Position numbers and translations under genes: made by a program | Shown here: in pieces, positions 4,966 to 36,600 of the stretch | Layout of the letters: every line of letters starts with the position of its first letter | Position numbering within the stretch: position 1 is the first letter of the stretch | The notes under the pieces: generated by a model | Seen by the model: the letters and a program-made list of their open reading frames with translations, nothing else | Told to the model about the DNA's origin: nothing | Database searches by the model: none | Virus record (IMG/VR): IMGVR_UViG_2728369554_000009 | Span: 1 to 40,186 of that record | DNA length: 40,186 bases | Direction: 5' to 3' (one strand) | Source of the DNA: a virus | Lineage: Duplodnaviria; Heunggongvirae; Uroviricota; Caudoviricetes

Positions 4966-4980
4966 TTACCGTTGAGGTAA
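4966..4980. promoter_or_regulatory. Operator-like palindrome TTACC-N5-GGTAA
   Basis: TTACCGTTGAGGTAA in early-left promoter region; extra half-site at 4953-4957 doubles as SD of 4794-4946 gene. Confidence 0.5.
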
Positions 4981-5027
4981 TGATTATGCGTATCTGGTTT
5001 GATGTCAATAGATATGAGTTAAAAAAA

Positions 5028-5042
5028 TTACCCATAAGGTAA
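5028..5042. promoter_or_regulatory. Operator-like palindrome TTACC-N5-GGTAA
   Basis: TTACCCATAAGGTAA between repressor terminator and early-left operon. Confidence 0.5.
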
Positions 5043-5053
5043 TCTTGCTGGCA

Positions 5054-5079
5054 ATAAAAAAGCCGCCATGAGGCGGCTT
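5054..5079 (-). terminator. Intrinsic terminator after repressor gene
   Basis: AAGCCGCC-ATGA-GGCGGCTT hairpin followed on minus strand by T-run. Confidence 0.7.
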
Positions 5080-5099: not shown

Positions 5100-5684
5100 T
5101 TATTGTTTGTTTTTTTCGTTCTGGCTGATGACAAATTCAATGTAACTTTCGATCTTTGCCTTCTCTGTTTCGGGTAACAATGCGTAGCGCGAGCGGTCAT
5201 AGTTGATAGTCGCAGGGTCGTGCGGGTGAATCAGTAATTCATAGCCGTGACGCCCGAATGCGGATGCAACATTCTCCAGGGTGGAAATGGAAACGCTGAC
5301 CTCATTGTTTAACAGGCGGCTGATTGTCACCTGGGCGACGCCGGATGCGCGGTGAAGTTTTCCCTGTGTTGAAAGGTAGCGGCTTTCGCTCATCCAGCGT
5401 TCCAGGTTGTGAGCCGCCAGCTGACCAATGTCGCTTGGGCCGACAGGCTGAAAACCTTCCTGAGAAAGCGAGCGATCGATATCAAGCCAGTTACGGGGTT
5501 TATTGGCGGCAGCTTCAATTTTTCGCGCAACCTGGTCGCCGATAACCTTCTTGCCAAGAGCCCAGCGGTTTACCAGATTTGCCTGAGTTCCAAGTTTTTC
5601 TGCCATCCGCGTCTGAACACCATTGAATTCACGGTCGATCAAGTCGTTGAGATTTTGCCTGCGGACGTCCTGGATACTTTTCAT
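5100..5684 (-). CDS. Prophage repressor candidate with two HTH segments and no S24 peptidase domain
   Basis: 194 aa; HTH-like segments (TRMAEKLGTQANLVNRW and ASGVAQVTISRLLNNE); no GDSM/Ser-Lys autocleavage motif seen; divergent from Cro-like gene; intrinsic terminator just downstream; no SD upstream of ATG 5684. Confidence 0.65.
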   Translation of the reverse strand: MKSIQDVRRQNLNDLIDREFNGVQTRMAEKLGTQANLVNRWALGKKVIGDQVARKIEAAANKPRNWLDIDRSLSQEGFQPVGPSDIGQLAAHNLERWMSESRYLSTQGKLHRASGVAQVTISRLLNNEVSVSISTLENVASAFGRHGYELLIHPHDPATINYDRSRYALLPETEKAKIESYIEFVISQNEKNKQ

Positions 5685-5739
5685 TTTCTGGAAAATCGCC
5701 TCATATATGAATCAGTAGATGATTCAATTTAAAGCAATA

Positions 5740-5754
5740 TTACCCAACAGGTAA
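5740..5754. promoter_or_regulatory. Operator-like palindrome TTACC-N5-GGTAA (immunity region)
   Basis: TTACCCAACAGGTAA in repressor/cro divergent region; imperfect copy TTACCTTATGGGTGA at 5788-5802 and half-site 5767-5771. Confidence 0.55.
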
Positions 5755-5838
5755 ATGCACCTCATAGGTAACTATCCTTGATTTTTGTTACCTTATGGGT
5801 GAATATTTATTATCTGAAATAAATATCAGGCAATAGCT

Positions 5839-6069
5839 ATGAGCGATAACGGACATTTCGATTTCAAAAAGCACTGGCTTGCACTTACTCCGGATGAGCG
5901 TGAAGCCTTCGCACAGGAAGCCGGAACGACGAGTCACTATATCCAGACTCACTTAACAGGTAAGCGAAAAATGCCAGGTAAAGTATTGATGAATGGGCTT
6001 TTTAAAGCCTGTAAAACAAGACAATGGCTGCGCTCAAAAGCAGAACTGGCATACTTCTTCTACTCATGA
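5839..6069 (+). CDS. Cro-like small HTH regulator
   Basis: 76 aa; EREAFAQEAGTTSHYIQTHLTGKRKMP HTH-like; divergent from repressor gene across a 154-bp region holding operator-like palindromes; followed by intrinsic terminator. Confidence 0.55.
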   Translation: MSDNGHFDFKKHWLALTPDEREAFAQEAGTTSHYIQTHLTGKRKMPGKVLMNGLFKACKTRQWLRSKAELAYFFYS

Positions 6070-6089: not shown

Positions 6090-6113
6090 TAGACCGCCAC
6101 CCGGCGGTCTTTT
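6090..6113 (+). terminator. Intrinsic terminator after Cro-like gene
   Basis: AGACCGCC-ACCC-GGCGGTCT hairpin followed by TTTTC. Confidence 0.7.
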
Positions 6114-6124
6114 CATATCTATTC

Positions 6125-6139
6125 GTACCTCAAAGGTAA
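6125..6139. promoter_or_regulatory. Operator-like palindrome (imperfect, GTACC-N5-GGTAA)
   Basis: GTACCTCAAAGGTAA downstream of cro-like terminator, upstream of 6219 gene. Confidence 0.4.
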
Positions 6140-6434: not shown

Positions 6435-7274
6435 ATGAGCAGACATGCAACAGATTGGGCCTGGGAGACAGATCCAGGTAGCTCGTCATTAAAGCTCATA
6501 CTGCTCTCGATGGCTGACAGAGCCGATGAATATAACCTCTGCTACCCCAGCATAGAACGCCTCGTTAAAGACACTTGCCTGAATAAAAAAACCGTGCAGG
6601 CCGGGCTTATATCACTCATGAAAATGGGGCTTATTTCAGATACCGGAGAGAGAAAGGGAGCGACGAAAAGAGTGCGGGTTTTCTCTCTTAATATAACCAA
6701 AAACGGGAACATTAAAGGCAACCGGGAAGGGGGTAATGAACCCGAAAACGGTAATGTTACCGAAAACGGGAATATACCCAAAAACGGGATGTTGAATGAT
6801 CCCAAAAACGGGATGTTGAATGATCCCAAAAACGGGATGTTGAATGATCCCAAAAACGGGATCCAGAACCAGTCATATAACCAGTCATTTAACCAAGAGA
6901 GGGAGAGCAGGACAAAAAGCGGGGATTCTGTGCCTAATGACCCCGGCGCAAACAACGCCGTGATGAATAACTTTGTTCCTCCTGGTGGGCCAGGGCAATT
7001 AGGCAAATTTGTCATGCATGAACAATGGCAACCATCAGATGACTTTCTTCGGAAAAGCTCATTGCAGGGGATCTACCTGGACAGTCTGCCAACGGCACAG
7101 GAACTTGCAGAGTTCAGAATTTACTGGATGGCTGAGGGTAAGGCATACCATCAGGCACAGTGGGAGCAGAAGCTGGCAAGGCGGCTGCAGATTAGCAGAC
7201 AGAAGCAATCAACATTACCTGATAACAACGTTCCGCACTGGAACAGCCCTGAAGCATGGGAGGATTTCTTGTGA
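6435..7274 (+). CDS. Replication initiator (lambda O-like role; N-terminal HTH, repeat-encoding linker, DnaT-like C-terminus)
   Basis: 279 aa; N-terminal HTH-like LKLILLSMADRADEYNLCYPSIERLVKDTCLNKKTVQAGL; central linker encoded by tandem 24-bp repeats (NGMLNDPK x3); position upstream of P-like gene. Confidence 0.7.
   Translation: MSRHATDWAWETDPGSSSLKLILLSMADRADEYNLCYPSIERLVKDTCLNKKTVQAGLISLMKMGLISDTGERKGATKRVRVFSLNITKNGNIKGNREGGNEPENGNVTENGNIPKNGMLNDPKNGMLNDPKNGMLNDPKNGIQNQSYNQSFNQERESRTKSGDSVPNDPGANNAVMNNFVPPGGPGQLGKFVMHEQWQPSDDFLRKSSLQGIYLDSLPTAQELAEFRIYWMAEGKAYHQAQWEQKLARRLQISRQKQSTLPDNNVPHWNSPEAWEDFL
6696..6865. repeat. Iteron array inside the replication initiator gene (putative origin of replication)
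   Basis: Seven direct copies of RAAAACGG(G/T)A incl. three perfect 24-bp units CCCAAAAACGGGATGTTGAATGAT at 6777-6800, 6801-6824, 6825-6848; followed by AT-rich stretch. Confidence 0.65.
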
Positions 7275-8093: not shown

Positions 8094-8108
8094 TTACCCA
8101 ATGGGTAA
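8094..8108. promoter_or_regulatory. Operator-like palindrome TTACC-N5-GGTAA
   Basis: TTACCCAATGGGTAA after P-like gene. Confidence 0.5.
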
Positions 8109-8155: not shown

Positions 8156-8170
8156 TTACCTTAGAGGTAA
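8156..8170. promoter_or_regulatory. Operator-like palindrome TTACC-N5-GGTAA overlapping SD
   Basis: TTACCTTAGAGGTAA ending 3 nt before ATG 8174; right half is the GAGGT Shine-Dalgarno. Confidence 0.5.
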
Positions 8171-10460: not shown

Positions 10461-10501
10461 GAGTAGATTATGCATGATGAATTTGATGGGTTTTGAATAC
10501 T

Positions 10502-10528
10502 GCCGCCAACTATGGCGGCTTTATTTTG
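10502..10528 (+). terminator. Intrinsic terminator between early region and terS
   Basis: GCCGCC-AACTAT-GGCGGC hairpin followed by TTTATTTT. Confidence 0.7.
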
Positions 10529-10538
10529 CATGGTACTA

Positions 10539-10553
10539 TTACCACAACGGTAA
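10539..10553. promoter_or_regulatory. Operator-like palindrome TTACC-N5-GGTAA upstream of terS
   Basis: TTACCACAACGGTAA; imperfect TTACCACGGTGGTTA at 10557-10571 overlaps terS start. Confidence 0.5.
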
Positions 10554-10570
10554 CTATTACCACGGTGGTT

Positions 10571-11167
10571 ATGATGCCTGCTGAACCTAAAACCTATAAA
10601 CGCAAATCAACGCAATTTAAGCCACTAACAGCAATGCAGGAGGCTTATTGCCAGTCATACATCAAAACGCCTGAAAACCAGACTCAGGCAGCGATTAACG
10701 CAGGATTCTCCCCAAATACAGCGGCAGTTAAAGCCAGTGTCATGATGCGCGATGAACGCATTCAAAAACGGATTGCCGAGTTGATGGAGGAGCGCAACAA
10801 ACGAATGCGCGTCAGTGCTGATTACGTTCTCATGCGCCTGGTGGAGATCGACCAGATGGACGTGATCGACATCCTCAACGACGATGGGAGCCTTAAGCCA
10901 ATCCGCGAGTGGCCGAAAATCTGGCGCACTACGCTTAGCGGCTTTGATCTGTCATCGACCATCATGAACATGAACGAGGATTCGATAGAGACAATCCTCA
11001 AAAAAATTAAATGGCCTGACAAGGTGAAGAACCTCGAACTGATTGGTAAGCACGTCGACGTCAAAGCATTCAAAGAACGCCTGGATGTTAATGTGAATGT
11101 GACAATTGCTGATCGCATAGCAGCAGCCAGGAAGCGACTCAAAGAACGTCAGGATGGTAATCAGTGA
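10571..11167 (+). CDS. terS: Terminase small subunit
   Basis: AYCQSYIKTPENQTQAAINAGFSPNTAAVKASVMMRDERIQKRI resembles Terminase_2-type small subunits; immediately upstream of and overlapping terL. Confidence 0.75.
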   Translation: MMPAEPKTYKRKSTQFKPLTAMQEAYCQSYIKTPENQTQAAINAGFSPNTAAVKASVMMRDERIQKRIAELMEERNKRMRVSADYVLMRLVEIDQMDVIDILNDDGSLKPIREWPKIWRTTLSGFDLSSTIMNMNEDSIETILKKIKWPDKVKNLELIGKHVDVKAFKERLDVNVNVTIADRIAAARKRLKERQDGNQ

Positions 11168-13803: not shown

Positions 13804-13818
13804 TTACCTGAAAGGTAA
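13804..13818. promoter_or_regulatory. Operator-like palindrome TTACC-N5-GGTAA upstream of portal operon
   Basis: TTACCTGAAAGGTAA ~90 bp upstream of 13909 gene. Confidence 0.5.
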
Positions 13819-17801: not shown

Positions 17802-17852
17802 CGCCTGTTATTAACCTGTGGGCCGCAACAGGCCCACTAATGGAGAAAGAAG

Positions 17853-19615: not shown

Positions 19616-22086
19616 TGGCTATCAGTTGGATCCAGCCCAGCTTTGCCGGTGGTGAGATTGGACCGTCGTTGTACGGTCGTATTGACATGGCGAAGTACCA
19701 GGTGGCATTGCGCAAGTGCGATAACTTTATCGTGCGGCAGTATGGCGGAGTTGAGAATCGACCTGGTACGCGTTTTGTCGGTGCCGCCAAATACCCAAAT
19801 CGGAAATGCCGCCTGATCCCGTTCCAGTTCTCGACGGTTCAGACTTATGCTCTGGAGTTCGGACACCAGTACATGCGCGTTATCAAAGATGGTGCGTTGG
19901 TGCTGAACAGCAGCAATGTTATTTATGAAATTTCCACGCCATATACTGAAGCCGATCTGTTCCGAATTAAATTCACGCAAAGCGCAGACGTGCTTACGCT
20001 GGTTCATCCGGCATACCCGCCGAAAGAGTTGCGCCGCTATGCGCATGACAACTGGCAACTGGTTGATGTGGTAACGAAGAACGGGCCATTTGAAGATATC
20101 AATATTGACGAGTCAGTGACGGTTTATGCCAGCGCCAGCACCGGGACAATTACGCTAACGGCAAGCGCCTCTATTTTTGGCGCGGAGCAGGTAGGCAAAT
20201 TGTTCTATCTGGAACAGCCTGCAGTGGATTCTGTGCCGGTATGGGAAACCAGTAAGAGTACGTCGATTGGCGATATTCGCCGTGCAGACAGTAACTACTA
20301 TCGCGCCGTTACAGCAGGCAAAACAGGTACTTTGCGCCCTTCGCATACAGAAGGCACATCATGGGATGGCTGGGGCGGATCCGGTGATGATGATACTGGC
20401 ATTGAGTGGGAATATCTGCACAGTGGTTTTGGCATTGCCCGTATCACTGCTGCAAATGGAACTACTGCAACTGCCGAGGTGATTTCCTATATCCCTTCGC
20501 AGGTCGTGGGCGAGGATAATGCCAGCTATAAATGGGCTAAATATGCCTGGAACAGTGTTAATGGTTATCCTGGCACTGTTGTTTATTATCAACAACGTCT
20601 TTACTTCGCCGCATCGACTGCGTTTCCTCAGACTATCTGGGCCAGCCGTACCGGGGATTATAAGGATTTTGGCAAAAGCAATCCTACGCAGGATGACGAC
20701 AGAATTATCTACACCTATGCCGGACGTCAGGTTAATGAGATCCGCCACCTGATTGATGTTGGTTCTCTGGTGGCGCTGACTTCCGGAGGTGAGTACGTCA
20801 TCACCGGCGACCAGAACAAAGTGTTAACCCCATCATCATTTGCATTCAGCTCTCAGGGATCAAATGGCTCAAGCAACGTCCCGCCAATTGCCGTGGCGAA
20901 TATTGCTCTGTTCGTCCAGGAGAAAGGCAGCGTTGTCCGTGATCTGGCCTACTCATTCGATGTTGACGGCTATCAGGGGAACGACCTGACCATCCTTGCC
21001 AATCATCTTTTTCAGAAGCACAGCATTGTTGACTGGTGCTTCTCGATTGTCCCTTACTCCAGTGCCTTCTGCATTCGTGATGACGGTAAATTACTGGTGA
21101 TGACCTATTTGCGTGATCAGCAGGTTTTTGCATGGGCACCACAATCCAGTACCGGAAAATATGAAAGCACATGCAGTATCAGCGAAGGCAATGAAGATGC
21201 GGTGTATTTCGTCGTTAACCGAACCGTTAACGGGCAAACAGTGAGATACATCGAGCGACTGTCCAGCCGTTTATTTACCAGCGATGAAGATGCTTTCTTT
21301 GTTGATTCTGGCCTTAGCTATGATGGAAGAAATACGTCTGACAGAACGATGATCATCACTGGTGGTTCTGGCGAATGGGATTACCGCGCGGAATATACAA
21401 TCAGTGTTTCTGGTGGTGCGTACTTCACCAGTAGTGATGTCGGCGCGCAACTACAGTTCCCTTATACCGGAACGGATCCTGATACTGGCGATGAAGTGTC
21501 AAAAGAATTACGTTGCGACATTATTTCTGTAACCAGCAATACCGCTGTAGTGGTTCGTCCTAACAGGAACGTCCCGCCATCCCTCAGGAATGTGGCCACC
21601 ACGAACTGGCAGATGGCGCGCCGGGCATTTGGCGGCTTGTCTCATCTTGAAGGTCAGACCGTAAACATTCTCTCTGATGCGAACGTGGAACCACAGAAAG
21701 TGGTTTCCGGAGGTGCCGTCACGCTGGAATCTACGGGGGCTGTAGTGCACATCGGCCTGCCAATAACTGCTGAATTCGAAACACTGGATATCAACATTAA
21801 CGGACAGGAAACGCTGCTGGACAAAAAACAGGTGATCCCCTCCGTTACTCTGGTTGTGAATGCCAGTCGCGGCATCTGGGCGACTACGCCCGGCGGTAAA
21901 TGGTACGAATATCCACAGCGTGAATTCGAGTTCTACGATGATCCTGTTGATGATGCTACCGGAAAAGTAGAAGTGAAACTGGACAGTAACTGGGGCAAAA
22001 ACGGACGTGTAAAAATCCGTCAGCTTGACCCGTTGCCGCTGTCTGTTCTTGCCGTTATTCCTCGCCTTACTGTTGGGGGATTCTGA
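19615..22086 (+). CDS. Tail nozzle (T7 gp12-like tail tubular protein B)
   Basis: 823 aa; N-terminal GGEIGPSLYGR and central SRTGDYKDF...DDD segments parallel T7 gp12 (recalled). Confidence 0.75.
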   Translation: MAISWIQPSFAGGEIGPSLYGRIDMAKYQVALRKCDNFIVRQYGGVENRPGTRFVGAAKYPNRKCRLIPFQFSTVQTYALEFGHQYMRVIKDGALVLNSSNVIYEISTPYTEADLFRIKFTQSADVLTLVHPAYPPKELRRYAHDNWQLVDVVTKNGPFEDINIDESVTVYASASTGTITLTASASIFGAEQVGKLFYLEQPAVDSVPVWETSKSTSIGDIRRADSNYYRAVTAGKTGTLRPSHTEGTSWDGWGGSGDDDTGIEWEYLHSGFGIARITAANGTTATAEVISYIPSQVVGEDNASYKWAKYAWNSVNGYPGTVVYYQQRLYFAASTAFPQTIWASRTGDYKDFGKSNPTQDDDRIIYTYAGRQVNEIRHLIDVGSLVALTSGGEYVITGDQNKVLTPSSFAFSSQGSNGSSNVPPIAVANIALFVQEKGSVVRDLAYSFDVDGYQGNDLTILANHLFQKHSIVDWCFSIVPYSSAFCIRDDGKLLVMTYLRDQQVFAWAPQSSTGKYESTCSISEGNEDAVYFVVNRTVNGQTVRYIERLSSRLFTSDEDAFFVDSGLSYDGRNTSDRTMIITGGSGEWDYRAEYTISVSGGAYFTSSDVGAQLQFPYTGTDPDTGDEVSKELRCDIISVTSNTAVVVRPNRNVPPSLRNVATTNWQMARRAFGGLSHLEGQTVNILSDANVEPQKVVSGGAVTLESTGAVVHIGLPITAEFETLDININGQETLLDKKQVIPSVTLVVNASRGIWATTPGGKWYEYPQREFEFYDDPVDDATGKVEVKLDSNWGKNGRVKIRQLDPLPLSVLAVIPRLTVGGF

Positions 22087-28874: not shown

Positions 28875-29402
28875 TCAATGGCTGTTTATGGCTTCTAAAG
28901 AAGCTTCTGCACTTATCGGCAAAGCAATAGTATCCTTGTTAGATGTGCTATTGCTTTCCAGAACTATGGAAATCCAATCCTCTTGGTTTTCATTAATTGT
29001 GCTGACAGCCATGATAGCATTCAAATCATTTTTATATATTTCTGATCGAATAAGACCTTTCCTGAATAATTTAGTTAAGTTTTCAGCTATCGACATCGCA
29101 CGAATGCTAACTTTACTAAGCTCAATTGCGTCACTACCTGCGACTTTGGCGTGTTGAGAAAGAGCCATCAAAGCTATATGTGAAAATGTTTCTTCTTTTG
29201 AAAAACCGTTACTTAAAGACATGAGTGATACACCAGCTCCGTATGGGGTGAGTTTATATCCTGATACATTCAGTGCATGCTCTACAAAGGTAAGATCATC
29301 AGTTGTAGAAACATGCATATCGTTACTTTTTTGTTTTTTTGCAATAAATAAAAAAACAAAATTAATAATCACGATGCCGACGATGATTAAGAAAACTTCC
29401 AT
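28875..29402 (-). CDS. Membrane-anchored hypothetical moron protein
   Basis: 175 aa; N-terminal TM helix MEVFLIIVGIVIINFVFLFIA; gene is AT-rich relative to neighbours; SD GAGGAA; operator-like palindrome 29423-29437 just upstream. Confidence 0.55.
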   Translation of the reverse strand: MEVFLIIVGIVIINFVFLFIAKKQKSNDMHVSTTDDLTFVEHALNVSGYKLTPYGAGVSLMSLSNGFSKEETFSHIALMALSQHAKVAGSDAIELSKVSIRAMSIAENLTKLFRKGLIRSEIYKNDLNAIMAVSTINENQEDWISIVLESNSTSNKDTIALPISAEASLEAINSH

Positions 29403-29422: not shown

Positions 29423-29437
29423 TTACCTTAAAGGTAA
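29423..29437. promoter_or_regulatory. Operator-like palindrome TTACC-N5-GGTAA
   Basis: TTACCTTAAAGGTAA ~20 bp upstream of membrane-protein moron start (29402). Confidence 0.5.
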
Positions 29438-29462: not shown

Positions 29463-29861
29463 TTAAGTGTATACCTCCTGCTGTTCAGTCGTGATTTTAC
29501 CCGGCAACACCTTTTTAGCTTTGCGCGGGTTAACCACATGGCCTTTAGTCCAGTACTCGTAGAGCACATCATCACACTCTTCCTGATACTGGATTACCTT
29601 ATCGCGGATTTCAGGGCGGACTTTGTTTGGACTGATGCTGTTCAACCAAGCTGCCAATTTTCGTAAAGCCATACAAATCATGGCTTGCACCCCTCCGGCA
29701 GAAGGTATGGTGATTTCCACCATACCCTTCGAGAAGCGTTGAGAAATCTTCTTATGTTGAGATTTCCAGTCTAGACCCATTCCCTCAACGATAGGTTTCA
29801 TTGGGGTGTACGGTTCGCCGTTGTGATTGACAACATAAAGTTCTACGCCGTGGAATGGCAC
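29463..29861 (-). CDS. Hypothetical phage protein (possibly regulatory)
   Basis: 132-aa protein-like ORF; start ambiguous (GTG 29861 or ATG 29801); divergent from antirepressor leader. Confidence 0.45.
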   Translation of the reverse strand: MPFHGVELYVVNHNGEPYTPMKPIVEGMGLDWKSQHKKISQRFSKGMVEITIPSAGGVQAMICMALRKLAAWLNSISPNKVRPEIRDKVIQYQEECDDVLYEYWTKGHVVNPRKAKKVLPGKITTEQQEVYT

Positions 29862-30008
29862 GTTGATAGTAGTGACAAGTTTGAAACATCGCTGGTTGTA
29901 AGCCAGCAGATGCTCGTTATTTTACATCGCGGTACAATTTCTCGCTGGTGGCTCTTTTATACACCTTAACCAAATATGGTTGATTTTGATATTTATCTTC
30001 GTCTATTA

Positions 30009-30023
30009 TTACCTTTTCGGTAA
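30009..30023. promoter_or_regulatory. Operator-like palindrome TTACC-N5-GGTAA at head of Bro-N antirepressor leader
   Basis: TTACCTTTTCGGTAA, followed by TTTACA-N17-CATAGT promoter-like hexamers. Confidence 0.5.
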
Positions 30024-30103
30024 ATTTACATCGCACTCCTCTTGTGCCATAGTAATCGGGCACTGGCAAAATCCAGTGCCGGGATTGGTCTCCCGGATTA
30101 CTA
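30009..30103. repeat. Left arm of perfect 95-bp inverted repeat (antirepressor leader)
   Basis: Reverse complement of 33103-33197 with no mismatches by eye; includes palindrome 30009-30023, -35-like TTTACA and two hairpins. Confidence 0.85.
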
Positions 30104-30290
30104 CAGAGGCACATATGCCGCATAAGCGGTTTTTTTATGTGTAAAGCGCACCTATTCTATGGTGGGCTGTGTGGGGGCACCGAAAGGTGCGCCGGGTTCC
30201 TTTGTAGCCGGTAAGACCAACTCTGCACAGTTCACCACCATCTGATTGGTCTCAGCGGTGGTGATTAACCTAACTACAAAGGTGATCGCC
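30024..30290 (+). ncRNA. Structured 5' leader / candidate sRNA upstream of Bro-N antirepressor gene
   Basis: Hairpins at 30059-30080, 30079-30096, terminator hairpin+T7 at 30118-30136, GAAA-tetraloop hairpin 30177-30190, 8-bp-stem hairpin 30232-30264; mirrored with compensatory changes in the AntA leader. Confidence 0.45.
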
Positions 30291-30983
30291 ATGAATACCA
30301 AACCTTCCATCTTTTCCTTTGAGTCATCCTGCCAGATCCGTATGTTCATGATTGACGGAGAACCTTGGTTTGTCACCAAAGATGTGTGCAATGCTTTGAA
30401 TATTGATGTTACACAAGCGAGAAAACTTGATAAAAAAGGCTGGAACAAAAAGGGGCTGTATTCAATACAGACCCCTGGTGGAATACAAGAACTATCCATC
30501 GTTTCAGAATCAGGTCTCTACATCCTTATTCTGCGTTGCAAAGAGGCAATGACTGAGGGAACGAGAGCATTCAGATTTCTTGAATGGGTTACAGGTGAGG
30601 TTCTTCCTCAGATCCGCCGCACCGGAAGTTACATTAAAAACTCGCTCCCGCAGGAAGAACGCATAAAGATGGTTGCCGACCAGGTAGCCAACGCCACGGC
30701 GTCAGCAGTAATGCAGGCGATGAAGATAGAGAACAAAACCTACAGTGCCCCGCTGAAGCCCGGCTACCGCAGCCTGATTCATTCTCCGTCTGGTGTTCTC
30801 GGCCTGACGGAGAACTCACTGCTGATGAATCTGCTGAACCAGTTACAGGAAGACGGGCACGATGTATCGGGCGCGGCGGCGGAGCTGACCACCATGTTCT
30901 GCTACATCGTCGGTGTGAGCAAATGCCTGCGTGATATCCAGACGCACGCGGAATACATCAACGACAAGGCAGGGTTCTTCTGA
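30291..30983 (+). CDS. Antirepressor-family protein: Bro-N domain fused to shared C-terminal (KilAC-like) domain
   Basis: N-terminus FSFESSCQIRMFMIDGEPWFVTKDVCNAL...ESGLYILILR fits Bro-N; C-terminal ~78 aa near-identical to C-terminus of 32255-32911 gene; ATG 30291 after AAAGGTGA. Confidence 0.7.
   Translation: MNTKPSIFSFESSCQIRMFMIDGEPWFVTKDVCNALNIDVTQARKLDKKGWNKKGLYSIQTPGGIQELSIVSESGLYILILRCKEAMTEGTRAFRFLEWVTGEVLPQIRRTGSYIKNSLPQEERIKMVADQVANATASAVMQAMKIENKTYSAPLKPGYRSLIHSPSGVLGLTENSLLMNLLNQLQEDGHDVSGAAAELTTMFCYIVGVSKCLRDIQTHAEYINDKAGFF
30741..30983. repeat. Left copy of ~243-bp inverted repeat encoding the shared antirepressor C-terminal domain
   Basis: Near-identical (a handful of substitutions) to reverse complement of 32255-32497. 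Confidence 0.85.
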
Positions 30984-31021
30984 CAGAACGGCGGCACAGG
31001 GACGTGCAAAACGAAACTAGC

Positions 31022-31033: not shown

Positions 31034-31058
31034 AGGCCGCTTTCGCGGCCTTGTTTTT
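31034..31058 (+). terminator. Intrinsic terminator after Bro-N antirepressor gene
   Basis: AGGCCGC-TTTC-GCGGCCT hairpin followed by TGTTTTT. Confidence 0.65.
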
Positions 31059-31218
31059 AACGAATGCCACCGCCACCCGGGCGGGAATCCGCAGAACGCC
31101 CACCGCAGCGGGAGCCGTCAGCAGCAGTGTCGCTGTCGTGCTGACAACGACCGGCAAAGGCCTGAGTTGAAGCTACCAGAGACAACAAAACGAACAGTGC
31201 AGCAAATGCTTTTTTCAT
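31057..31218 (-). CDS. Small predicted secreted peptide (tentative)
   Basis: MKKAFAALFVLLSLVASTQAFA signal-peptide-like N-terminus followed by ~31 aa with two Cys; weak SD; 3' end runs into the terminator hairpin. Confidence 0.3.
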   Translation of the reverse strand: MKKAFAALFVLLSLVASTQAFAGRCQHDSDTAADGSRCGGRSADSRPGGGGIR

Positions 31219-31299
31219 TGTGAAATTTCCATCTATAAACCACCTCAATGTGGCGTCAATGAGTGTAGCACTGACTTTTGTTTCGTCCATAAAAAACTA

Positions 31300-31812
31300 C
31301 TATGCAGGCTTTTTGGATTTGTACGAATAATCCCACGGATAAACATTTCTACTAAGTGGAGCTGTATTCGTTCGTTCATGAAATAATTTTGTGAAATTCA
31401 ATACGGAATCCATCCAAACTTTTGCGTTAGCTTTGGTGTGTGCGGGCGGGTCCCAATAAGCTAGTAAGGCTGCATCTCTTATTTCATTGACTGCATATAT
31501 GAGATATGCGTTACTGGTTGGTTTTGGCCTGTAATTTCCTTGTTCATCAATCAATCCATATGACCACTCATCCCAACACTGTTCAGTACATGAGTATGAA
31601 TATGATGCATATTCACCAATATTGACATGAACCTTTCTGAGATGGAAGCCTAATACTTCCTCTGGTCTTTCAAAAAGAGTATCTTTTCCCAGATCAGGAT
31701 GATGACCATGACGCCAGTGTTGTTTAAAAGCATCTTTTAGCGAAATCAGAAAGTCATCAGTTTTAAACTCACCAGTAGGTATAACCTTCCCGCTATACTC
31801 ACTCAAAAACAT
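31300..31812 (-). CDS. YafO-like putative toxin (AT-rich moron)
   Basis: 170 aa; PDLGKDTLFERPEEV...AYLIYAVNEIRDAALLAYWDPPAH parallels my recollection of E. coli YafO (PDTFGRDALYDD...AHLVYCQGAFDEQAWLLIAILKPEPH); SD GGAAGAGG; overlaps upstream gene by 14 nt. Confidence 0.45.
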   Translation of the reverse strand: MFLSEYSGKVIPTGEFKTDDFLISLKDAFKQHWRHGHHPDLGKDTLFERPEEVLGFHLRKVHVNIGEYASYSYSCTEQCWDEWSYGLIDEQGNYRPKPTSNAYLIYAVNEIRDAALLAYWDPPAHTKANAKVWMDSVLNFTKLFHERTNTAPLSRNVYPWDYSYKSKKPA

Positions 31813-32125
31813 CGAATTCCTCTTCCTTCATATGCGTTTCTAATGAGTTAAGCTGGCGGAAAGATATCTCTTTTGATTCTGCAGATGAGAGCTTTTTTAT
31901 CCGCTTTATATTCTTTGTGATAGGAATAGACATTGTATGCACATCAGCGGATGCTCTTGGCTTTGTGCTGATAAAAATATGGCGCAATGCCGCATTTTCA
32001 CTATTGAACGAGCCAATAGCTGATTTACGTGCTACAACCTTACCAGTAAAAATACGACTCTTGCTACGCTTTGCATGAGTTCCGCTTCTTACCGGACCTC
32101 TCATCACGAATCCAAGTTTTGTCAT
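31799..32125 (-). CDS. Basic hypothetical protein, upstream partner of YafO-like gene
   Basis: 108 aa, Lys/Arg-rich with acidic C-terminus EEEFDVFE; SD GGAGAT; operator-like palindrome 32168-32182 upstream; not recognisably a known antitoxin. Confidence 0.4.
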   Translation of the reverse strand: MTKLGFVMRGPVRSGTHAKRSKSRIFTGKVVARKSAIGSFNSENAALRHIFISTKPRASADVHTMSIPITKNIKRIKKLSSAESKEISFRQLNSLETHMKEEEFDVFE

Positions 32126-32167: not shown

Positions 32168-32182
32168 TTACCTTTAAGGTAA
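32168..32182. promoter_or_regulatory. Operator-like palindrome TTACC-N5-GGTAA
   Basis: TTACCTTTAAGGTAA ~45 bp upstream of 32125 gene start. Confidence 0.5.
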
Positions 32183-32254
32183 TAGTACGCTATTCACCCC
32201 CGGTCTGCAATCTGTACAGAATTATTTAAAGGCACATCCCTGTGCCACCGCCCG

Positions 32255-32497
32255 TCAGAAGAACCCTGCCTTGTCGTTGATGTACTCCGCGTGGGTCTGG
32301 ATATCACGCAGGCATTTGCTCACACCGACGATGTAGCAGAACATGGTGGTCAGCTCCGCCGCCGCGCCCGATACGTCGTGCCCGTCGTCCTGTAACTGGT
32401 TCAGCAGATTCATCAGCAGTGAGTTCTCCGTCAGGCCGAGAACACCAGACGGCGAATGAATCAGGCTGCGGTAGCCGGGCTTCAGTGGGGCGCTGTA
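32255..32497. repeat. Right copy of ~243-bp inverted repeat encoding the shared antirepressor C-terminal domain
   Basis: Near-identical to reverse complement of 30741-30983. Confidence 0.85.
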
Positions 32498-32911
32498 TTC
32501 TTTTTTGTCTTCCAGCTTGATCGCCTCCATTATGGCGGGCATGAAGCCTGACAAGACCTTCTCCACTTTTGTTTCTTGTTGTCTTAAACGTTTCTCGCAT
32601 TCAATGAAGTAGCGTCGCACCTGGCGACCTTTTTCGTTACGCTCGACCATCGCCAGCTCTTTGGCTGTATCAAGGGTGAGGTGGTACTCTTTGCGGTTGT
32701 GGCCGCCTCTACCAGATGTTTGCTTTCCCAAATTGGAAAGCAAAATATAGTCTTGATTTTCAATGAATTCGTATTCTGATATGCGATTTGTAATCCATGC
32801 TGCAAACACCTTTTTAACACCTAAAAAAGCGTGCAGATCGCGGGCATTACAAAGTAGGGCTGTTTCGTTAGATATAGTGCCGTTGAATACGGGGATGAGT
32901 TGAGCGTTCAT
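32255..32911 (-). CDS. Antirepressor-family protein: AntA-like N-terminal domain fused to shared C-terminal (KilAC-like) domain
   Basis: N-terminus [28 protein letters not shown]...[22 protein letters not shown] fits AntA; C-terminal ~78 aa near-identical to the Bro-N gene. Confidence 0.7.
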
Positions 32912-33182
32912 GATGGCGTCTCCACTTAGCGAATTACATCACCACCGCTGAGACCAATCAGATGGTGGTGAACTGAACGGAGTTGGTCTTACCGGCCTAA
33001 GTGGTACCGGCGTCCTTTCGGACCCCCATTCAGCCCACCATAATTCTGGCATGACTGTGCTATACGCATAAAAAAACCACGTCTGGCGTGGTATGCGCCA
33101 CTTAGTAATCCGGGAGACCAATCCCGGCACTGGATTTTGCCAGTGCCCGATTACTATGGCACAAGAGGAGTGCGATGTAAAT
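32912..33182 (-). ncRNA. Structured 5' leader / candidate sRNA upstream of AntA antirepressor gene
   Basis: Mirror of the Bro-N leader: same hairpins, terminator stem CCACG-CCAGA-CGTGG+T7 (33076-33090), GTCC-GAAA-GGAC (33012-33023), conserved hairpin 32939-32971. Confidence 0.45.
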
Positions 33183-33197
33183 TTACCGAAAAGGTAA
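33103..33197. repeat. Right arm of perfect 95-bp inverted repeat (antirepressor leader)
   Basis: Reverse complement of 30009-30103. Confidence 0.85.
33183..33197. promoter_or_regulatory. Operator-like palindrome TTACC-N5-GGTAA at head of AntA antirepressor leader
   Basis: TTACCGAAAAGGTAA; mirror of 30009-30023. Confidence 0.5.
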
Positions 33198-33228
33198 ATA
33201 TAAGCACTCCACTTGGTAATTGCAAACC

Positions 33229-33486
33229 TTATCTGGTTTGTTTTCGTAATTGTTCGGCACAATAGTCGAGATGTGTTTGCAGATCCTGCATAGACATCTG
33301 TGAGCTGGTGACGTAGTTAATCAGTGCAGTCAGTTCGGCAAGTGGGCCATCGACATTAAATCCATCCTTATCGAGATCCCGGAGTAATTTCATCAAGTGC
33401 GATCCCTCCACCAGTGACCTGACGCCTCCCGGCGTGTGAATCCTTTCGGTAAATCCGTCTTCCAGTGGATAGTGATACTGCTGCAT
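33229..33486 (-). CDS. Stand-alone paralogue of the antirepressor C-terminal domain
   Basis: ATG 33486 after GGAGAA; MQQYHYPLEDGFTERIHTPGGVRSLVEGSHLMKLLRDL...QTHLDY aligns at ~40% identity by eye with the shared C-terminal domain of the two antirepressor genes. Confidence 0.5.
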   Translation of the reverse strand: MQQYHYPLEDGFTERIHTPGGVRSLVEGSHLMKLLRDLDKDGFNVDGPLAELTALINYVTSSQMSMQDLQTHLDYCAEQLRKQTR

Positions 33487-33562
33487 CTTATCTTCTCCAT
33501 GCAATAACTGTATATTTATACAGTAGCAAATAATTTGTTTGCTATCCAGCACGTTTTGCAAA

Positions 33563-33577
33563 TTACCTGAAAGGTAA
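33563..33577. promoter_or_regulatory. Operator-like palindrome TTACC-N5-GGTAA
   Basis: TTACCTGAAAGGTAA upstream of stand-alone C-terminal-domain gene (start 33486). Confidence 0.5.
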
Positions 33578-33681
33578 TATCTATTCGTATTTACAGCCTT
33601 TCTATCCATATGTGGTTTTCCAGGTAATAGAATAACCAGATATGCGGCGCAACGGGTGCTGCGACTATCTGGAGATTTAAC

Positions 33682-36600
33682 ATGACGGTCTCAACCGAAG
33701 TTGACCACAACGAATACACCGGTAACGGCGTTACGACATCGTTTCCGTATACTTTTCGAATTTTCAGAAAATCAGACCTGGTTGTTCAGGTGTCTGACCT
33801 GAACGGAAACGTAACAGAATTGGTTCTGGATACCGGTTATACGGTAACTGGGGCGGGCACTTATAGTGGCGGTTCTGTGGTTCTTCCGTCTCCGCTTGCT
33901 ACTGGATGGCGAATTACGATAGATCGTGTGCTTGATGTAGTGCAGGAGACAGACCTTCGCAATCAGGGAAAATTTTTCCCCGAAGTGCATGAAGATGCCT
34001 TTGACTACCTGACGATGCTGATCCAGCAATGTTTTGGGTGGTTCAGACGTGCATTGATGAAACCATCTTTGCTTGCAAAATATTACGATGCAAAGCAAAA
34101 CAAAATTTCTAACCTTGCAGATCCATCATTTGAGCAGGACGCTGTAAATAATCGCTCAATGCGTAATTATGTCGATGCTGCAATCGCCGGGGTTGTTGGT
34201 GGTTTTGGTTGGTTTATTCAGTATGGTTCTGGGGCTGTGTACCGAACGTTCCAGGATAAAATGCGTGATGCTATTAGCCCCAAAGATTTTGGAGCTGTTG
34301 GTGATGGTATAAATGACGATTCCACTGCAATAAGCGCGTGCCTTGAAGCCTCATCTCCAGGTTATAAAATTGACGGATTAGGGCTTACTTTTAAAGTATC
34401 AACTCTTCCGGATGTCAGTCGATTTAAAAATGCTCGTTTTTTATTTGAGAGAATACCGGGCCAGCCTCTTTTTTATGCTTCTGAAGATTTTATCCAGGGA
34501 GAGTTATTTAAAATTACAGATACACCGTGGTACAACGCCTGGACGCAGGATAAAACGTTTGTATATGACAATGTCATCTATGCGCCTTTTATGGCTGGAG
34601 ACCGCCATGGTGTAAATAACCTCCATGTTGCATGGGTTCGCTCAGGAGATGACGGGAAGACCTGGACAACGCCGGAATGGCTTACAGATTTACATGAAAA
34701 CTATCCCACAGTTAACTATCACTGCATGAGTATGGGGGTTGTCAGAAATCGCCTTTTTGCTGTAATTGAGACGCGGACCGTGAGCGGAAATAAACTGCAG
34801 GTTGCAGAGTTGTGGGATCGCCCAATGAGTCGCAGCCTTCGCGTTTATGGTGGTATAACGAAAGCAGCAAATCAGCAAGTCGCTTATATTCGCATTACTG
34901 ATCACGGATTATTTGCTGGTGATTTTGTCAACTTCTCAAACTCTGGTGTTACAGGTGTTACCGGGAATATGACGGTGACTACTGTTATTGATAAAAATAC
35001 TTTTACAGTTACGACGCAAAATACCCAGGATGTGGATCAGAATAACGAGGGTAGATACTGGAGTTTTGGTACATCATTTCACTCGTCACCATGGAGAAAA
35101 ACCAGTCTTGGAACTATTCCTTCTTTTGTTGACGGAAGCACTCCTGTTACTGAGATTCACAGTTTTGCGACGATTAGCGATAACAGTTTTGCTGTTGGCT
35201 ACCATAATGGTGATATTGGTCCACGCGAGCTTGGGATACTCTATTTCTCTGATGCTTTCGGTTCTCCTGGTAGCTTTATTCGCAGACGCATACCTGCAGA
35301 ATATGAGGCGAATGCATCTGAGCCATGTGTAAAATATTATGATGGCATTCTGTATCTGACGACCAGGGGGACATTAAGTACTCAACCCGGTAGTTCATTG
35401 CACAGAAGCTCTGATTTAGGTACATCATGGAATTCTCTTCGCTTCCCAAATAATGTTCATCACTCAAACCTTCCTTTTGCCAAAGTTGGCGATGAGCTGA
35501 TTATTTTTGGCAGTGAGCGCGCATTTGGTGAGTGGGAAGGAGGAGAACCTGATAACCGTTATGCAGGAAATTATCCAAGAACATTTATGACCAGAGTTAA
35601 CGTCAATGAGTGGAGTCTGGATAATGTAGAGTGGGTTAATGTTACTGATCAGATTTATCAGGGCGGAATAGTTAACTCTGCGGTTGGTGTTGGTTCAGTT
35701 TGTATCAAAGACAACTGGCTGTACTACATTTTCGGTGGGGAAGACTTTCTAAACCCATGGAGCATAGGGGATAACAACAGAAAATATCCTTATGTTCACG
35801 ATGGTCACCCGGCTGATTTATATTGTTTCAGGGTGAAAATCAAACAGGAAGAATTTGTTTCAAGGGATTTTGTCTACGGAGCCACTCCTAACAGAACGCT
35901 TCCTACTTTTATGTCGACGTCAGGCGTGAGGACGGTTCCTGTACCCGTTGATTTCACAGATGATGTTGCCGTCCAGTCACTGACTGTCCATGCAGGTACA
36001 TCAGGACAAGTTCGCGCGGAAGTCAAACTTGAGGGTAATTACGCCATTATTGCGAAGAAAGTACCGTCTGATGATGTTACCGCTCAGAGATTAATCGTTA
36101 GCGGCGGTGAAACAACGTCTTCAGCAGATGGTGCAATGATAACGTTGCATGGTTCCGGAAGCAGTACTCCACGTCGCGCGGTATATAACGCACTCGAACA
36201 TCTTTTTGAGAACGGAGATGTTAAACCTTATCTTGATAATGTAAATGCTCTTGGTGGTCCGGGAAACAGGTTCTCGACAGTTTATCTTGGCTCCAATCCT
36301 GTGGTTACCAGTGACGGAACATTAAAGACAGAGCCGGTCTCTCCTGACGAAGCATTGCTGGATGCCTGGGGTGACGTCAGGTATATCGCTTATAAATGGC
36401 TGAACGCTGTCGCTATAAAGGGGGAAGAAGGGGCGAGGATACATCATGGTGTAATCGCGCAGCAACTTCGTGATGTTCTTATTTCTCACGGACTCATGGA
36501 AGAAGAAAGCACAACATGCCGCTATGCCTTTCTTTGCTATGACGATTATCCCGCAGTATATGATGACGTCATTACTGGCCAAAGGGAAATGCCGCTGACT

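Follow-up and report, generated by a model that had tools for sequence, protein, structure and literature searches.

Predicted SOS control of a small antirepressor gene in an epsilon15/phiV10-like prophage of Escherichia coli

How can a prophage be induced when its repressor has no self-cleavage domain? This question is raised by rep, a minus-strand gene at 5100-5684 which encodes a 194-aa prophage maintenance repressor. The gene lies in a 40,186-nt stretch of DNA (the window), which as a whole represents an E. coli prophage of the epsilon15/phiV10-like (Uetakevirus) type. The switch is of the SPC32H/epsilon15 Rep-Ant family and not of the Gifsy GfoR/GfoA family; LexA-controlled antirepressor switches of this type are already published, and the present one is an ordinary example. 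In epsilon15-like podophages the Rep-Ant-LexA switch was reportedly worked out genetically by Kim & Ryu in 2013 (J Virol 87:11775) and structurally by Kim et al. in 2016 (PNAS 113:E2480). Phage SPC32N of the former study reportedly carries a LexA-box mutation. The solved structures, PDB entries 5D50 and 5D4Z, are from the Salmonella podophage SPC32H, and the switch is common to epsilon15-like phages (Uetakevirus).

As in SPC32H, Rep is a two-domain protein of ~195 aa which can be aligned end to end with its homologue. Pfam finds HTH_3 in two stretches (E 1.2e-9; best aa 106-147) and YdaS/HTH at aa 21-61; both halves are recognised in PHROGs as transcriptional repressor or regulator. The two HTH-like segments described in the original prediction are borne out by the Pfam matches. 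The N-terminal HTH DNA-binding domain covers aa ~1-70; the C-terminal HTH-like domain, at aa ~89-190, matches the tetramerisation/Ant-binding domain of SPC32H Rep. Alignment with 5D50_A spans aa 1-190 (E 1.4e-41), while aa 89-190 align with 5D4Z_A, which holds residues 92-198 of SPC32H Rep (E 1.4e-19). Identity with SPC32H Rep is 42% end to end by BLASTP (54% in the N-terminal domain and 39% in the C-terminal domain), and two patches, A.AFG..YE and I.YD...Y..LP..EK.KI, are kept in the C-terminal domain. A single-sequence AlphaFold2 model of Rep was unusable (mean pLDDT 45, pTM 0.22); the solved homologue makes such a model unneeded.

Rep is 99% identical to ZX5 ORF21 and phiV10 p40. When overexpressed, ZX5 ORF21 prevents lytic growth (PMC9782041). 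Full-length tblastn matches to Rep are confined to Uetakevirus-type phages.

The repressor had been said to lack an S24 autocleavage domain, and this holds: a Pfam search of Rep for Peptidase_S24 returned nothing, even at E<=1. No Ala-Gly or Cys-Gly dipeptide is found anywhere in the Rep sequence. In having neither an S24 domain nor an Ala-Gly site, and in the HTH-like nature of its C-terminal domain, Rep differs from lambda CI, P22 C2 and LexA.

The rep start codon has no recognisable Shine-Dalgarno (SD) sequence, as was also stated in the original prediction. The end of the sole GAGG stands 14 nt ahead of the ATG (5684), and six aligned relatives show no conserved SD at this start. The likeness to leaderless lambda cI mRNA which was drawn from this is an analogy and not an observation. 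There is no -10-like hexamer 5-8 nt upstream of the ATG, the distance which a leaderless start needs (the sequence there is ATTTTC), and no promoter for such a start was placed by consensus scan. The sole invariant -10-like hexamer, TAATAT at 5737-5742 (minus strand), is kept in six genomes, overlaps the operator at 5740-5754 and is a candidate -10 of the rep maintenance promoter. With a promoter at this position the mRNA would have a leader of ~46 nt rather than none. Unlike that of lambda cI, a leaderless rep mRNA is unsupported by the sequence. A seven-codon upstream ORF (ATGAGGCGATTTTCCAGAAAATGA) overlapping the rep start is a chance feature, as it is missing in Tyrion, SPC32H, epsilon15 and BUCT711. 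The intrinsic terminator after rep (5060-5079, minus strand) is annotated at the same place in phiV10.

The motif TTACC-N5-GGTAA occurs in 12 exact copies in the window (~0.04 expected), every one at a promoter. SPC32H has the same motif and the same genome-wide placement, and epsilon15 has the motif as well; its RefSeq record, NC_004775.2, annotates such sites as 'protein_bind repressor'. These copies are putative Rep operators. Wherever the TTACC half-site is invariant, so is NLVNRW, the putative recognition helix. With the switch of epsilon15-like podophages already described and its operators annotated in RefSeq, the present example carries little weight as a discovery.

The immunity region is laid out like those of lambda CI and P22 C2: OL/PL on one side of the repressor gene, a three-part OR on the other, and a cro-like gene that runs divergently. 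OL (4966-5042) consists of two exact operators found by motif scan, TTACCGTTGAGGTAA at 4966-4980 and TTACCCATAAGGTAA at 5028-5042; they are 62 bp apart, and this spacing is kept in 6/6 Uetakevirus genomes. One stands on either side of PL, the predicted leftward promoter (-35 TTGACA at 5008-5003, -10 AATCAT at 4985-4980). OR (5740-5802), between rep and the cro-like gene, has one exact operator at 5740-5754, one with two mismatches at 5757-5771 and one with a single mismatch at 5788-5802; all three are kept in six genomes, and their epsilon15 equivalents are annotated 'protein_bind: repressor'. The operator at 5788-5802 lies within the spacer of the predicted PR (TTGTTA-17-TATTAT, 5785-5813, plus strand). 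The cro-like gene (5839-6069, plus strand; 76 aa) matches phrog_35 (E 5.6e-13) and is syntenic with epsilon15 gp39 and phiV10 p41. Further along the plus strand, a terminator at 6091-6110 is followed by the operator GTACCTCAAAGGTAA at 6125-6139, ahead of the replication genes.

Other operators are spread over the prophage. A pair at 8094-8108 and 8156-8170, again 62 bp apart, lies upstream of the DUF1064 gene. A second pair, at 10539-10553 (exact) and 10557-10571 (one mismatch), stands at the head of the terminase/late operon, where the epsilon15 equivalent is an annotated repressor site. Single operators are found upstream of the gp3-like gene (13804-13818), of the moron gene at 28875-29402 on the minus strand (29423-29437) and of a three-gene cassette at 31057-32125 on the minus strand (32168-32182).

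The predicted inducer is encoded elsewhere. The gene ant (33229-33486, minus strand) specifies an 85-aa antirepressor which matches phrog_450 and PDB 5D50_E, the 'Anti-repressor protein' of SPC32H (~86 aa), with 88% identity (E 4.1e-47). The family has no model in Pfam or NCBIfam. The gene is far from rep and adjoins the divergent tailspike gene, which starts at 33682 on the plus strand. SPC32H has the same layout (ant at 19676-19936 on the minus strand, tsp start at 20134 on the plus strand), and 'rep' and 'ant' are annotated at syntenic positions in its GenBank record, KC911856.

A LexA box, TACTGTATAAATATACAGTT on the minus strand, is located directly before ant at 33506-33525. This 20-mer matches the LexA consensus TACTGTATATATATACAGTA at 18/20 positions; the next best site in the window scores 13/20, and the best of 200 shuffles 16/20. 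It contains an exact CTGT-N8-ACAG (CTGTATATTTATACAG) at 33508-33523. Upstream of the ant ATG at 33486, the edge of the box is reached after 19 nt and the CTGT/ACAG core after 21 nt; a good SD, GGAG, is present at 33495-33498. The box is conserved in phiV10, SPC32H, epsilon15, Tyrion and BUCT711, at the same place before ant in SPC32H, and box, SD and start codon are kept together in six genomes from four host genera. Two other sites were rejected: an exact CTGT-N8-ACAG at 17816, with a spacer rich in GC, stays below 12/20 when compared with the 20-mer consensus, and a one-mismatch LexA-like site at 33581-33596 shows conservation only among phiV10-like genomes.

The predicted ant promoter (33520-33548, minus strand) consists of a -35 TGGATA at 33548-33543, a 17-nt spacer and an extended -10 TGcTACTGT at 33528-33520. 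Its positions are invariant in the alignment, and its -10 shares nucleotides with the left arm of the box. At the level of sequence, the box thus appears to overlap the ant promoter, as in a switch of the SPC32H type.

The original prediction had found no LexA box and had called the inducing signal unknown. The first statement is wrong; the box was probably missed because it falls inside the longest possible ORF, 33229-33609. The second gives way with it: a conserved, near-consensus LexA box precedes a fourth, small antirepressor gene, a homologue of SPC32H ant, and the signal predicted from this is the SOS response acting through LexA. An operator, TTACCTGAAAGGTAA at 33563-33577, also lies between ant and the tailspike gene, with its centre ~57 bp ahead of the predicted start of ant. 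All six genomes have it, and its epsilon15 homologue is an annotated repressor site; if it represses ant, the logic exceeds a simple LexA gate.

The mechanism proposed for this prophage follows from its homologues. In the lysogen, Rep would occupy TTACC-N5-GGTAA at OL, OR and nearly every other promoter and keep the lytic genes off, while host LexA would sit on the box at 33506-33525 and overlap the ant promoter. Lacking the S24 protease domain, Rep would stay uncut during the SOS response. DNA damage would lead to LexA self-cleavage, and Ant would be made; in this phage group the antirepressor is made after LexA self-cleavage, according to a passage of PMC7380047 which cites Kim & Ryu 2013. 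Ant would then bind the C-terminal domain of Rep and split the DNA-binding tetramer into dimers which hold DNA poorly, and the prophage would be derepressed. For SPC32H, a passage of PMC9638917 describes a Rep tetramer which binds DNA and an Ant tetramer which takes two Rep dimers and so breaks the Rep tetramer. The model as a whole (uncleavable Rep, LexA-gated small Ant, Rep tetramer disassembly and prophage derepression) is very probably correct.

The prophage also carries the three antirepressor-family genes counted in the original prediction, with P22_AR_N only, Bro-N and AntA domains. SPC32H has none of the three: neither the two RNA-gated proteins that end in an Ant-like module nor the truncated P22-type Ant. 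The latter is a 132-aa ORF (29463-29861, minus strand) with only the P22_AR_N domain according to Pfam and PHROGs, probably an antirepressor remnant; PGAP marks the same gene as 'incomplete; missing C-terminus' in strain BCE049, the near-identical prophage of which has no ant gene and, on the present model, should not respond to SOS. Accessory module 1 (32254-33202, minus strand) consists of an operator at 33183-33197, a promoter at 33181-33153, an isrK sRNA at 33146-33070, a C4 antisense RNA at 33045-32961 and an AntA-domain protein at 32911-32255, the last ~80 aa of which are 39% identical to Ant. Accessory module 2 (30004-30984, plus strand) is an inverted duplicate of module 1, with its operator at 30009-30023, promoter at 30025-30053, isrK at 30060-30136 and C4 at 30155-30242. 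Its Bro-N protein (ORF 30246-30983, probable start 30291) has the same Ant-like C-terminus as the AntA protein and is 81% identical to the ZX5 ORF4 anti-repressor (100% in the C-terminal half). The RNAs upstream of both genes exceed the Rfam gathering thresholds, with 78.6 and 61.2 bits for C4 (gathering 45) and 74.7 and 67.7 bits for isrK (gathering 50). No LexA box was found at any of the three large genes in the scan of the window.

The order isrK, short leader, antirepressor-like gene is that of the Gifsy-1 isrK-orf45-anrP locus (Hershko-Shalev et al. 2016, PMC4825925), and the presence of isrK and C4 before both large ant genes also recalls P1 immI (c4-icd-ant). Unlike those loci, the modules form an inverted duplication, stand behind a Rep operator and encode proteins with the Uetakevirus Ant module at their C-terminus. 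With Rep operators and isrK/C4 gates ahead of their genes, the Bro-N and AntA proteins would appear only once the prophage is derepressed or upon infection. Their genes are accessory, serving to amplify induction or to communicate with other prophages, and do not act as the SOS sensor.

Could one or more of these large proteins (P22_AR_N, Bro-N, AntA) nevertheless be the inducer and respond to an unknown, non-LexA signal, as first proposed? Two of the three end in the Ant-like module, overexpression of ZX5 ORF4, the orthologue of the Bro-N protein, reduces lysogeny (PMC9782041), and isrK and C4 without a LexA box could give an SOS-independent trigger. However, promoters which abut Rep operators should be silent in the lysogen, the P22_AR_N gene is truncated, and a conserved LexA-controlled ant gene exists. 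The large genes are also missing from phages with the same or a related Rep, namely SPC32H, epsilon15 and phiV10, whose only gene of the kind is the small Ant-like one. Induction by the large proteins is therefore unlikely. What stands of the Gifsy-type logic in the original prediction is an uncleavable repressor inactivated by an antirepressor; what does not stand is the role of the three large genes as inducers, two being behind a Rep operator and isrK/C4, one truncated, and all without a LexA box.

A different doubt concerns the partners. The small LexA-controlled protein might not be cognate to a diverged Rep; the box would then serve another SOS function, and Rep would be inactivated otherwise. 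Identity to SPC32H of 39% in the Rep C-terminal domain against 88% in Ant is uneven in a way that would be strange for co-evolving partners, and for this reason the binding of Ant to its cognate Rep is inferred. Against a mismatch, full-length homologues of Rep and Ant occur in essentially the same ~35 phage records by tblastn, and the conserved patches persist in the Rep C-terminal domain. Furthermore, phiV10, with an identical Rep, has only the small Ant-like gene, and microcin Mcc1229, a bacteriocin, induces prophages of the phiV10 species 21-47 fold (bioRxiv 10.64898/2026.05.26.727859, a preprint on DNA-damaging bacteriocins). A non-cognate Ant is thus very unlikely. Inactivation of Rep directly by RecA*, or by proteolysis without an S24 domain, is highly improbable: Rep has neither that domain nor the dipeptides noted above, and a passage of PMC7380047 attributes induction in this group to the antirepressor and not to repressor cleavage.

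The LexA-gated Rep-Ant switch shares its general logic with Gifsy-1, -2 and -3 (GfoR/GftR/GfhR with GfoA/GftA/GfhA), in which the repressor likewise cannot be cleaved and a LexA box governs a small antirepressor gene located at a distance from the immunity region. Proteins and gene order set the two apart. The Gifsy repressors have a single domain and about 136-150 aa, similar over almost their full length to the lambda CI N-terminal domain (Lemire et al. 2011, PMC3121763), unlike the two-domain Rep. The Gifsy antirepressor sits in a LexA-controlled dinI-ant-irsA operon (PMC3121763); in contrast, ant stands alone directly after its LexA box, with no dinI-like ORF found. Tblastn with Rep or Ant yields Uetakevirus-type phages only. 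LexA-controlled antirepressors which act on uncleavable repressors are also known from coliphage 186 (CI/Tum) and phage N15 (CB/AntC), as cited in a passage of PMC3121763. Their proteins are unrelated to Rep and Ant; no homology was detected in Pfam, PHROGs or NCBIfam.

The accessory modules suggest a further level of control, which is possible but doubtful. In such a two-tier system the LexA-gated Ant would be backed by the same module on Bro-N and AntA heads, behind operators and isrK/C4, as a latch or an SOS-independent route. If true, this would provide a positive-feedback latch making induction irreversible or, alternatively, RNA-triggered induction independent of SOS, or cross-induction of related prophages. 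The contrast between a well-conserved Ant and a diverged Rep C-terminal domain could mean that one Ant inactivates the divergent Reps of Salmonella, E. coli and Enterobacter phages.

The practical value of the finding lies in the annotation of the small ant gene. Roughly 10% of complete E. coli genomes (530/5426) carry it under the label 'hypothetical protein'. Unlabelled and without a Pfam or NCBIfam model, it leads automated or by-eye readings to deny wrongly the SOS link of such prophages. The inducibility of these O-antigen-modifying prophages by DNA-damaging drugs or bacteriocins hinges on the 85-aa ant product and its LexA box.

Over the 2 kb around rep, the maintenance repressor gene (5100..5684, minus strand, 194 aa), the sequence shares 98% identity with Escherichia phage phiV10 and with further epsilon15-like podophages (genus Uetakevirus). 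Gene order across the whole window is that of phiV10; there rep corresponds to p40, which carries the annotation 'two helix-turn-helix motifs; similar to putative repressor epsilon15p38'. A prophage carrying the first 25 kb of the window is found in hundreds of E. coli genomes.

The original prediction described a repressor with two HTH-like segments and no S24 autocleavage domain; both features hold. Pfam matches HTH_3 to two stretches of Rep (E 1.2e-9; strongest at aa 106-147), together with HTH_26 and a YdaS-type HTH at aa 21-61, and PHROGs assigns each half to repressor or regulator families. The profile search for Peptidase_S24 finds no Pfam match in Rep even at E<=1, and the Ala-Gly dipeptide is absent from the Rep sequence. 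Residues 1-190 match PDB 5D50 chain A, 'Repressor' (E 1.4e-41), and Rep also matches 5D4Z, which covers Rep residues 92-198 (E 1.4e-19); BLASTP identity to the rep product of Salmonella phage SPC32H is 42%. A single-sequence AlphaFold model of Rep has a pLDDT of 45 and is unusable. The ZX5 repressor ORF21 is 99% identical to Rep; its overexpression abolished free phage and lysis-gene transcription (PMC9782041).

The palindrome TTACC-N5-GGTAA occurs in the window in 12 exact copies, where a palindrome of 10 bases should occur ~0.04 times by chance in 40 kb, and in 15 copies with at most one mismatch; allowing up to two mismatches brings the count to 40, whereas shuffled sequences give 11.4 +/- 3.7. 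All copies with at most one mismatch are located at promoter regions. Operators 4966 and 5028 lie on either side of the predicted PL; 5740, 5757 and 5788 occupy the interval separating rep from the cro-like gene, and one of them falls within the spacer of the PR predicted there (5757 has two mismatches and is excluded from the 15). Others are found after the terminator downstream of cro (6125), ahead of the DUF1064 gene (8094, 8156), at the head of the terminase operon (10539, 10557), ahead of the gp3-like gene (13804) and in the accessory region (29423, 30009, 32168, 33183, 33563). The five other genomes compared (phiV10, SPC32H, epsilon15, Enterobacter phage Tyrion and Klebsiella phage BUCT711) each contain 8-11 exact copies in syntenic places, and the epsilon15 RefSeq record annotates the palindrome as 'protein_bind: repressor; lysogeny'. 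The putative Rep recognition helix, NLVNRW, is invariant in all six phages, parallel to the invariant TTACC half-site.

The pairs 4966/5028 and 8094/8156 are spaced by 62 bp at both loci in the six Uetakevirus genomes, except for one BUCT711 locus (63 bp). This is about six helical turns and would suit one Rep tetramer bridging both sites on the same DNA face. The longest ORF for the terminase small subunit (10493-11167, plus strand, TTG start) encloses the operator pair 10539-10571; the true terS start is probably downstream of this pair. In epsilon15 and SPC32H the operator lies ahead of terS. In the replication-initiator gene (6435-7274, plus strand), the coding repeat NGMLNDPK is present three times in tandem at ~6770-6850; the copies are probably origin iterons inside the gene.

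The rep start codon was also described as having no recognisable SD. This is confirmed: the sole purine-rich element before the ATG (5684) is GAGG, ending 14 nt away, and no SD is conserved upstream of rep across six aligned relatives. A leaderless rep mRNA does not find support in the sequence; no -10-like hexamer lies at a leaderless-compatible distance from the ATG, and a promoter consensus scan gives nothing there. The single invariant -10-like hexamer upstream is TAATAT (5737-5742), which overlaps an operator; as the rep -10 it would mean a leader of ~46 nt. An upstream ORF of 7 codons that overlaps the start of rep is unconserved and was dismissed.

The original finding of no LexA box is wrong: an exact CTGT-N8-ACAG is present at 33508-33523. 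The enclosing LexA 20-mer (33506-33525) agrees with TACTGTATATATATACAGTA in 18 of 20 positions; the runner-up in the window reaches 13/20, and 0 of 200 shuffles score above 16/20. Other LexA-like sites in the window were judged not credible. The box lies upstream of ant (33229-33486, minus strand), 85 codons running from ATG 33486 to 33229; 19 nt separate the box from the ATG, and an SD, GGAG (33498-33495, minus strand), lies in this interval. The longest possible ORF over ant starts further upstream, at 33609, and encloses both the box and an operator, which probably explains why the box was missed.

Ant (85 aa) matches PDB 5D50 chain E, 'Anti-repressor protein' (E 4.1e-47), and is 88% identical to the product of the gene annotated 'ant' in SPC32H. 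Ant has no model in Pfam or NCBIfam and is identified solely by PHROG 450 and PDB 5D50_E. Of 5426 complete E. coli genomes, 530 carry the small gene and its LexA box, with the gene annotated 'hypothetical protein'. In the six-genome alignment upstream of ant, the LexA box, SD and start codon are conserved, as is a Rep operator ~35 bp beyond the box. Invariant positions in this alignment outline a plausible extended -10 promoter (33548-33520, minus strand; TGGATA, 17 nt, TGcTACTGT), whose -10 would be the left arm of the LexA box. The operator (33563-33577) is conserved in six of six genomes, ~57 bp ahead of the position where ant transcription is predicted to begin. It would be paradoxical for Rep to repress ant from this site; the operator may instead serve the divergent tailspike promoter.

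In several Salmonella prophages, as summarised in PMC7380047 (citing Kim & Ryu 2013), LexA self-cleavage leads to production of an antirepressor, which inhibits the repressor by protein-protein contact. SPC32H Rep is described as a tetramer on palindromic DNA; the Ant tetramer binds two Rep dimers, breaking the Rep tetramer, and the dimer has only weak affinity for DNA (PMC9638917, citing Kim et al. 2016; bioRxiv 10.1101/2025.11.27.690993). Together with this literature on the phage group, the Ant and Rep homologies, LexA box and operators found here make it very likely that this prophage is induced in the same way: DNA damage would cause LexA cleavage and hence ant transcription, and Ant would bind the Rep C-terminal domain, so that Rep loses operator binding. 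By analogy with the homologues, Rep would not be cleaved, and its tetramer would be disassembled upon binding by Ant. The ~35 phage records with a full-length Rep homologue are essentially the same as those with an Ant homologue. Between the window and SPC32H or epsilon15, Ant is 85-88% identical while Rep is 43% identical overall and its C-terminal (Ant-binding) domain 39-40%; two interacting proteins would not be expected to differ so much in conservation. A preprint about DNA-damaging bacteriocins reports 21- and 47-fold induction of phiV10-species prophages by microcin Mcc1229, a bacteriocin, in gut E. coli isolates (bioRxiv 10.64898/2026.05.26.727859).

The three antirepressor-family genes noted originally are indeed present: a P22_AR_N-only ORF (29463-29861, minus strand; N-terminal domain alone, marked truncated by PGAP in a sister prophage), a Bro-N gene (30246-30983, plus strand) and an AntA gene (32255-32911, minus strand). 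Motif and 20-mer scans of the window find no LexA box at any of them. The Bro-N module (30004-30984, plus strand) and the AntA module (32254-33202, minus strand) are inverted duplicates joined by inverted repeats of 100, 59 and 257 nt. In each, a Rep operator adjoins the -35 of a predicted promoter, followed by the isrK sRNA and its terminator, a C4 antisense RNA and the antirepressor-family gene; the isrK and C4 matches (Rfam, 4/4) are above the gathering thresholds. P1 immI has this architecture, as does the isrK-orf45-anrP locus of Gifsy-1, in which the sRNA gates translation of an antirepressor-like gene (PMC4825925). Since they are placed behind Rep operators, the large genes should be expressed only after derepression or upon infection. 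This resembles the case of Fels-1 FsoA, whose control lies with the repressor of its own phage rather than with LexA (PMC3121763).

The Bro-N and AntA proteins have different heads and nearly identical C-termini, a ~80-aa module with 39% identity to Ant. They are mosaics, because the AntA head alone occurs in ~800 phage records while the full fusion occurs in two only. ZX5 ORF4 and the Bro-N protein share 81% identity, and their C-terminal halves are identical; ORF4 overexpression reduced lysogeny (PMC9782041). All three large genes are accessory. Between the two modules is a three-gene cassette (31057-32125, minus strand) with its own Rep operator (32168-32182); the products are 108 aa (phrog_5933), 170 aa (weak YafO-toxin match, E 7e-4) and 77 aa (predicted membrane-associated), and the cassette may be a toxin or defence moron. 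A prophage of E. coli BCE049 (region NZ_CP042250.1, 3628054-3635100) is 99.9% identical to the window across the first 25 kb; the small ant gene with its LexA box and the AntA module have been lost from it, and the annotation treats its Bro-N and P22_AR_N genes as partial pseudogenes. This prophage is predicted to be unresponsive to the SOS signal.

The Gifsy-type induction logic originally proposed is right as to the scheme but not the family. Gifsy, 186 Tum and N15 AntC share with the window an uncleavable repressor and a LexA-controlled antirepressor. Gifsy repressors, however, are single-domain proteins of ~136-150 aa (PMC3121763), and the window lacks the Gifsy-type dinI-ant-irsA operon; because Rep has two domains and 194 aa and this operon is absent, the switch does not belong to the Gifsy family. 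By every sequence-level criterion tested, it belongs to the SPC32H/epsilon15 Rep-Ant family, and is therefore a switch that is already known.
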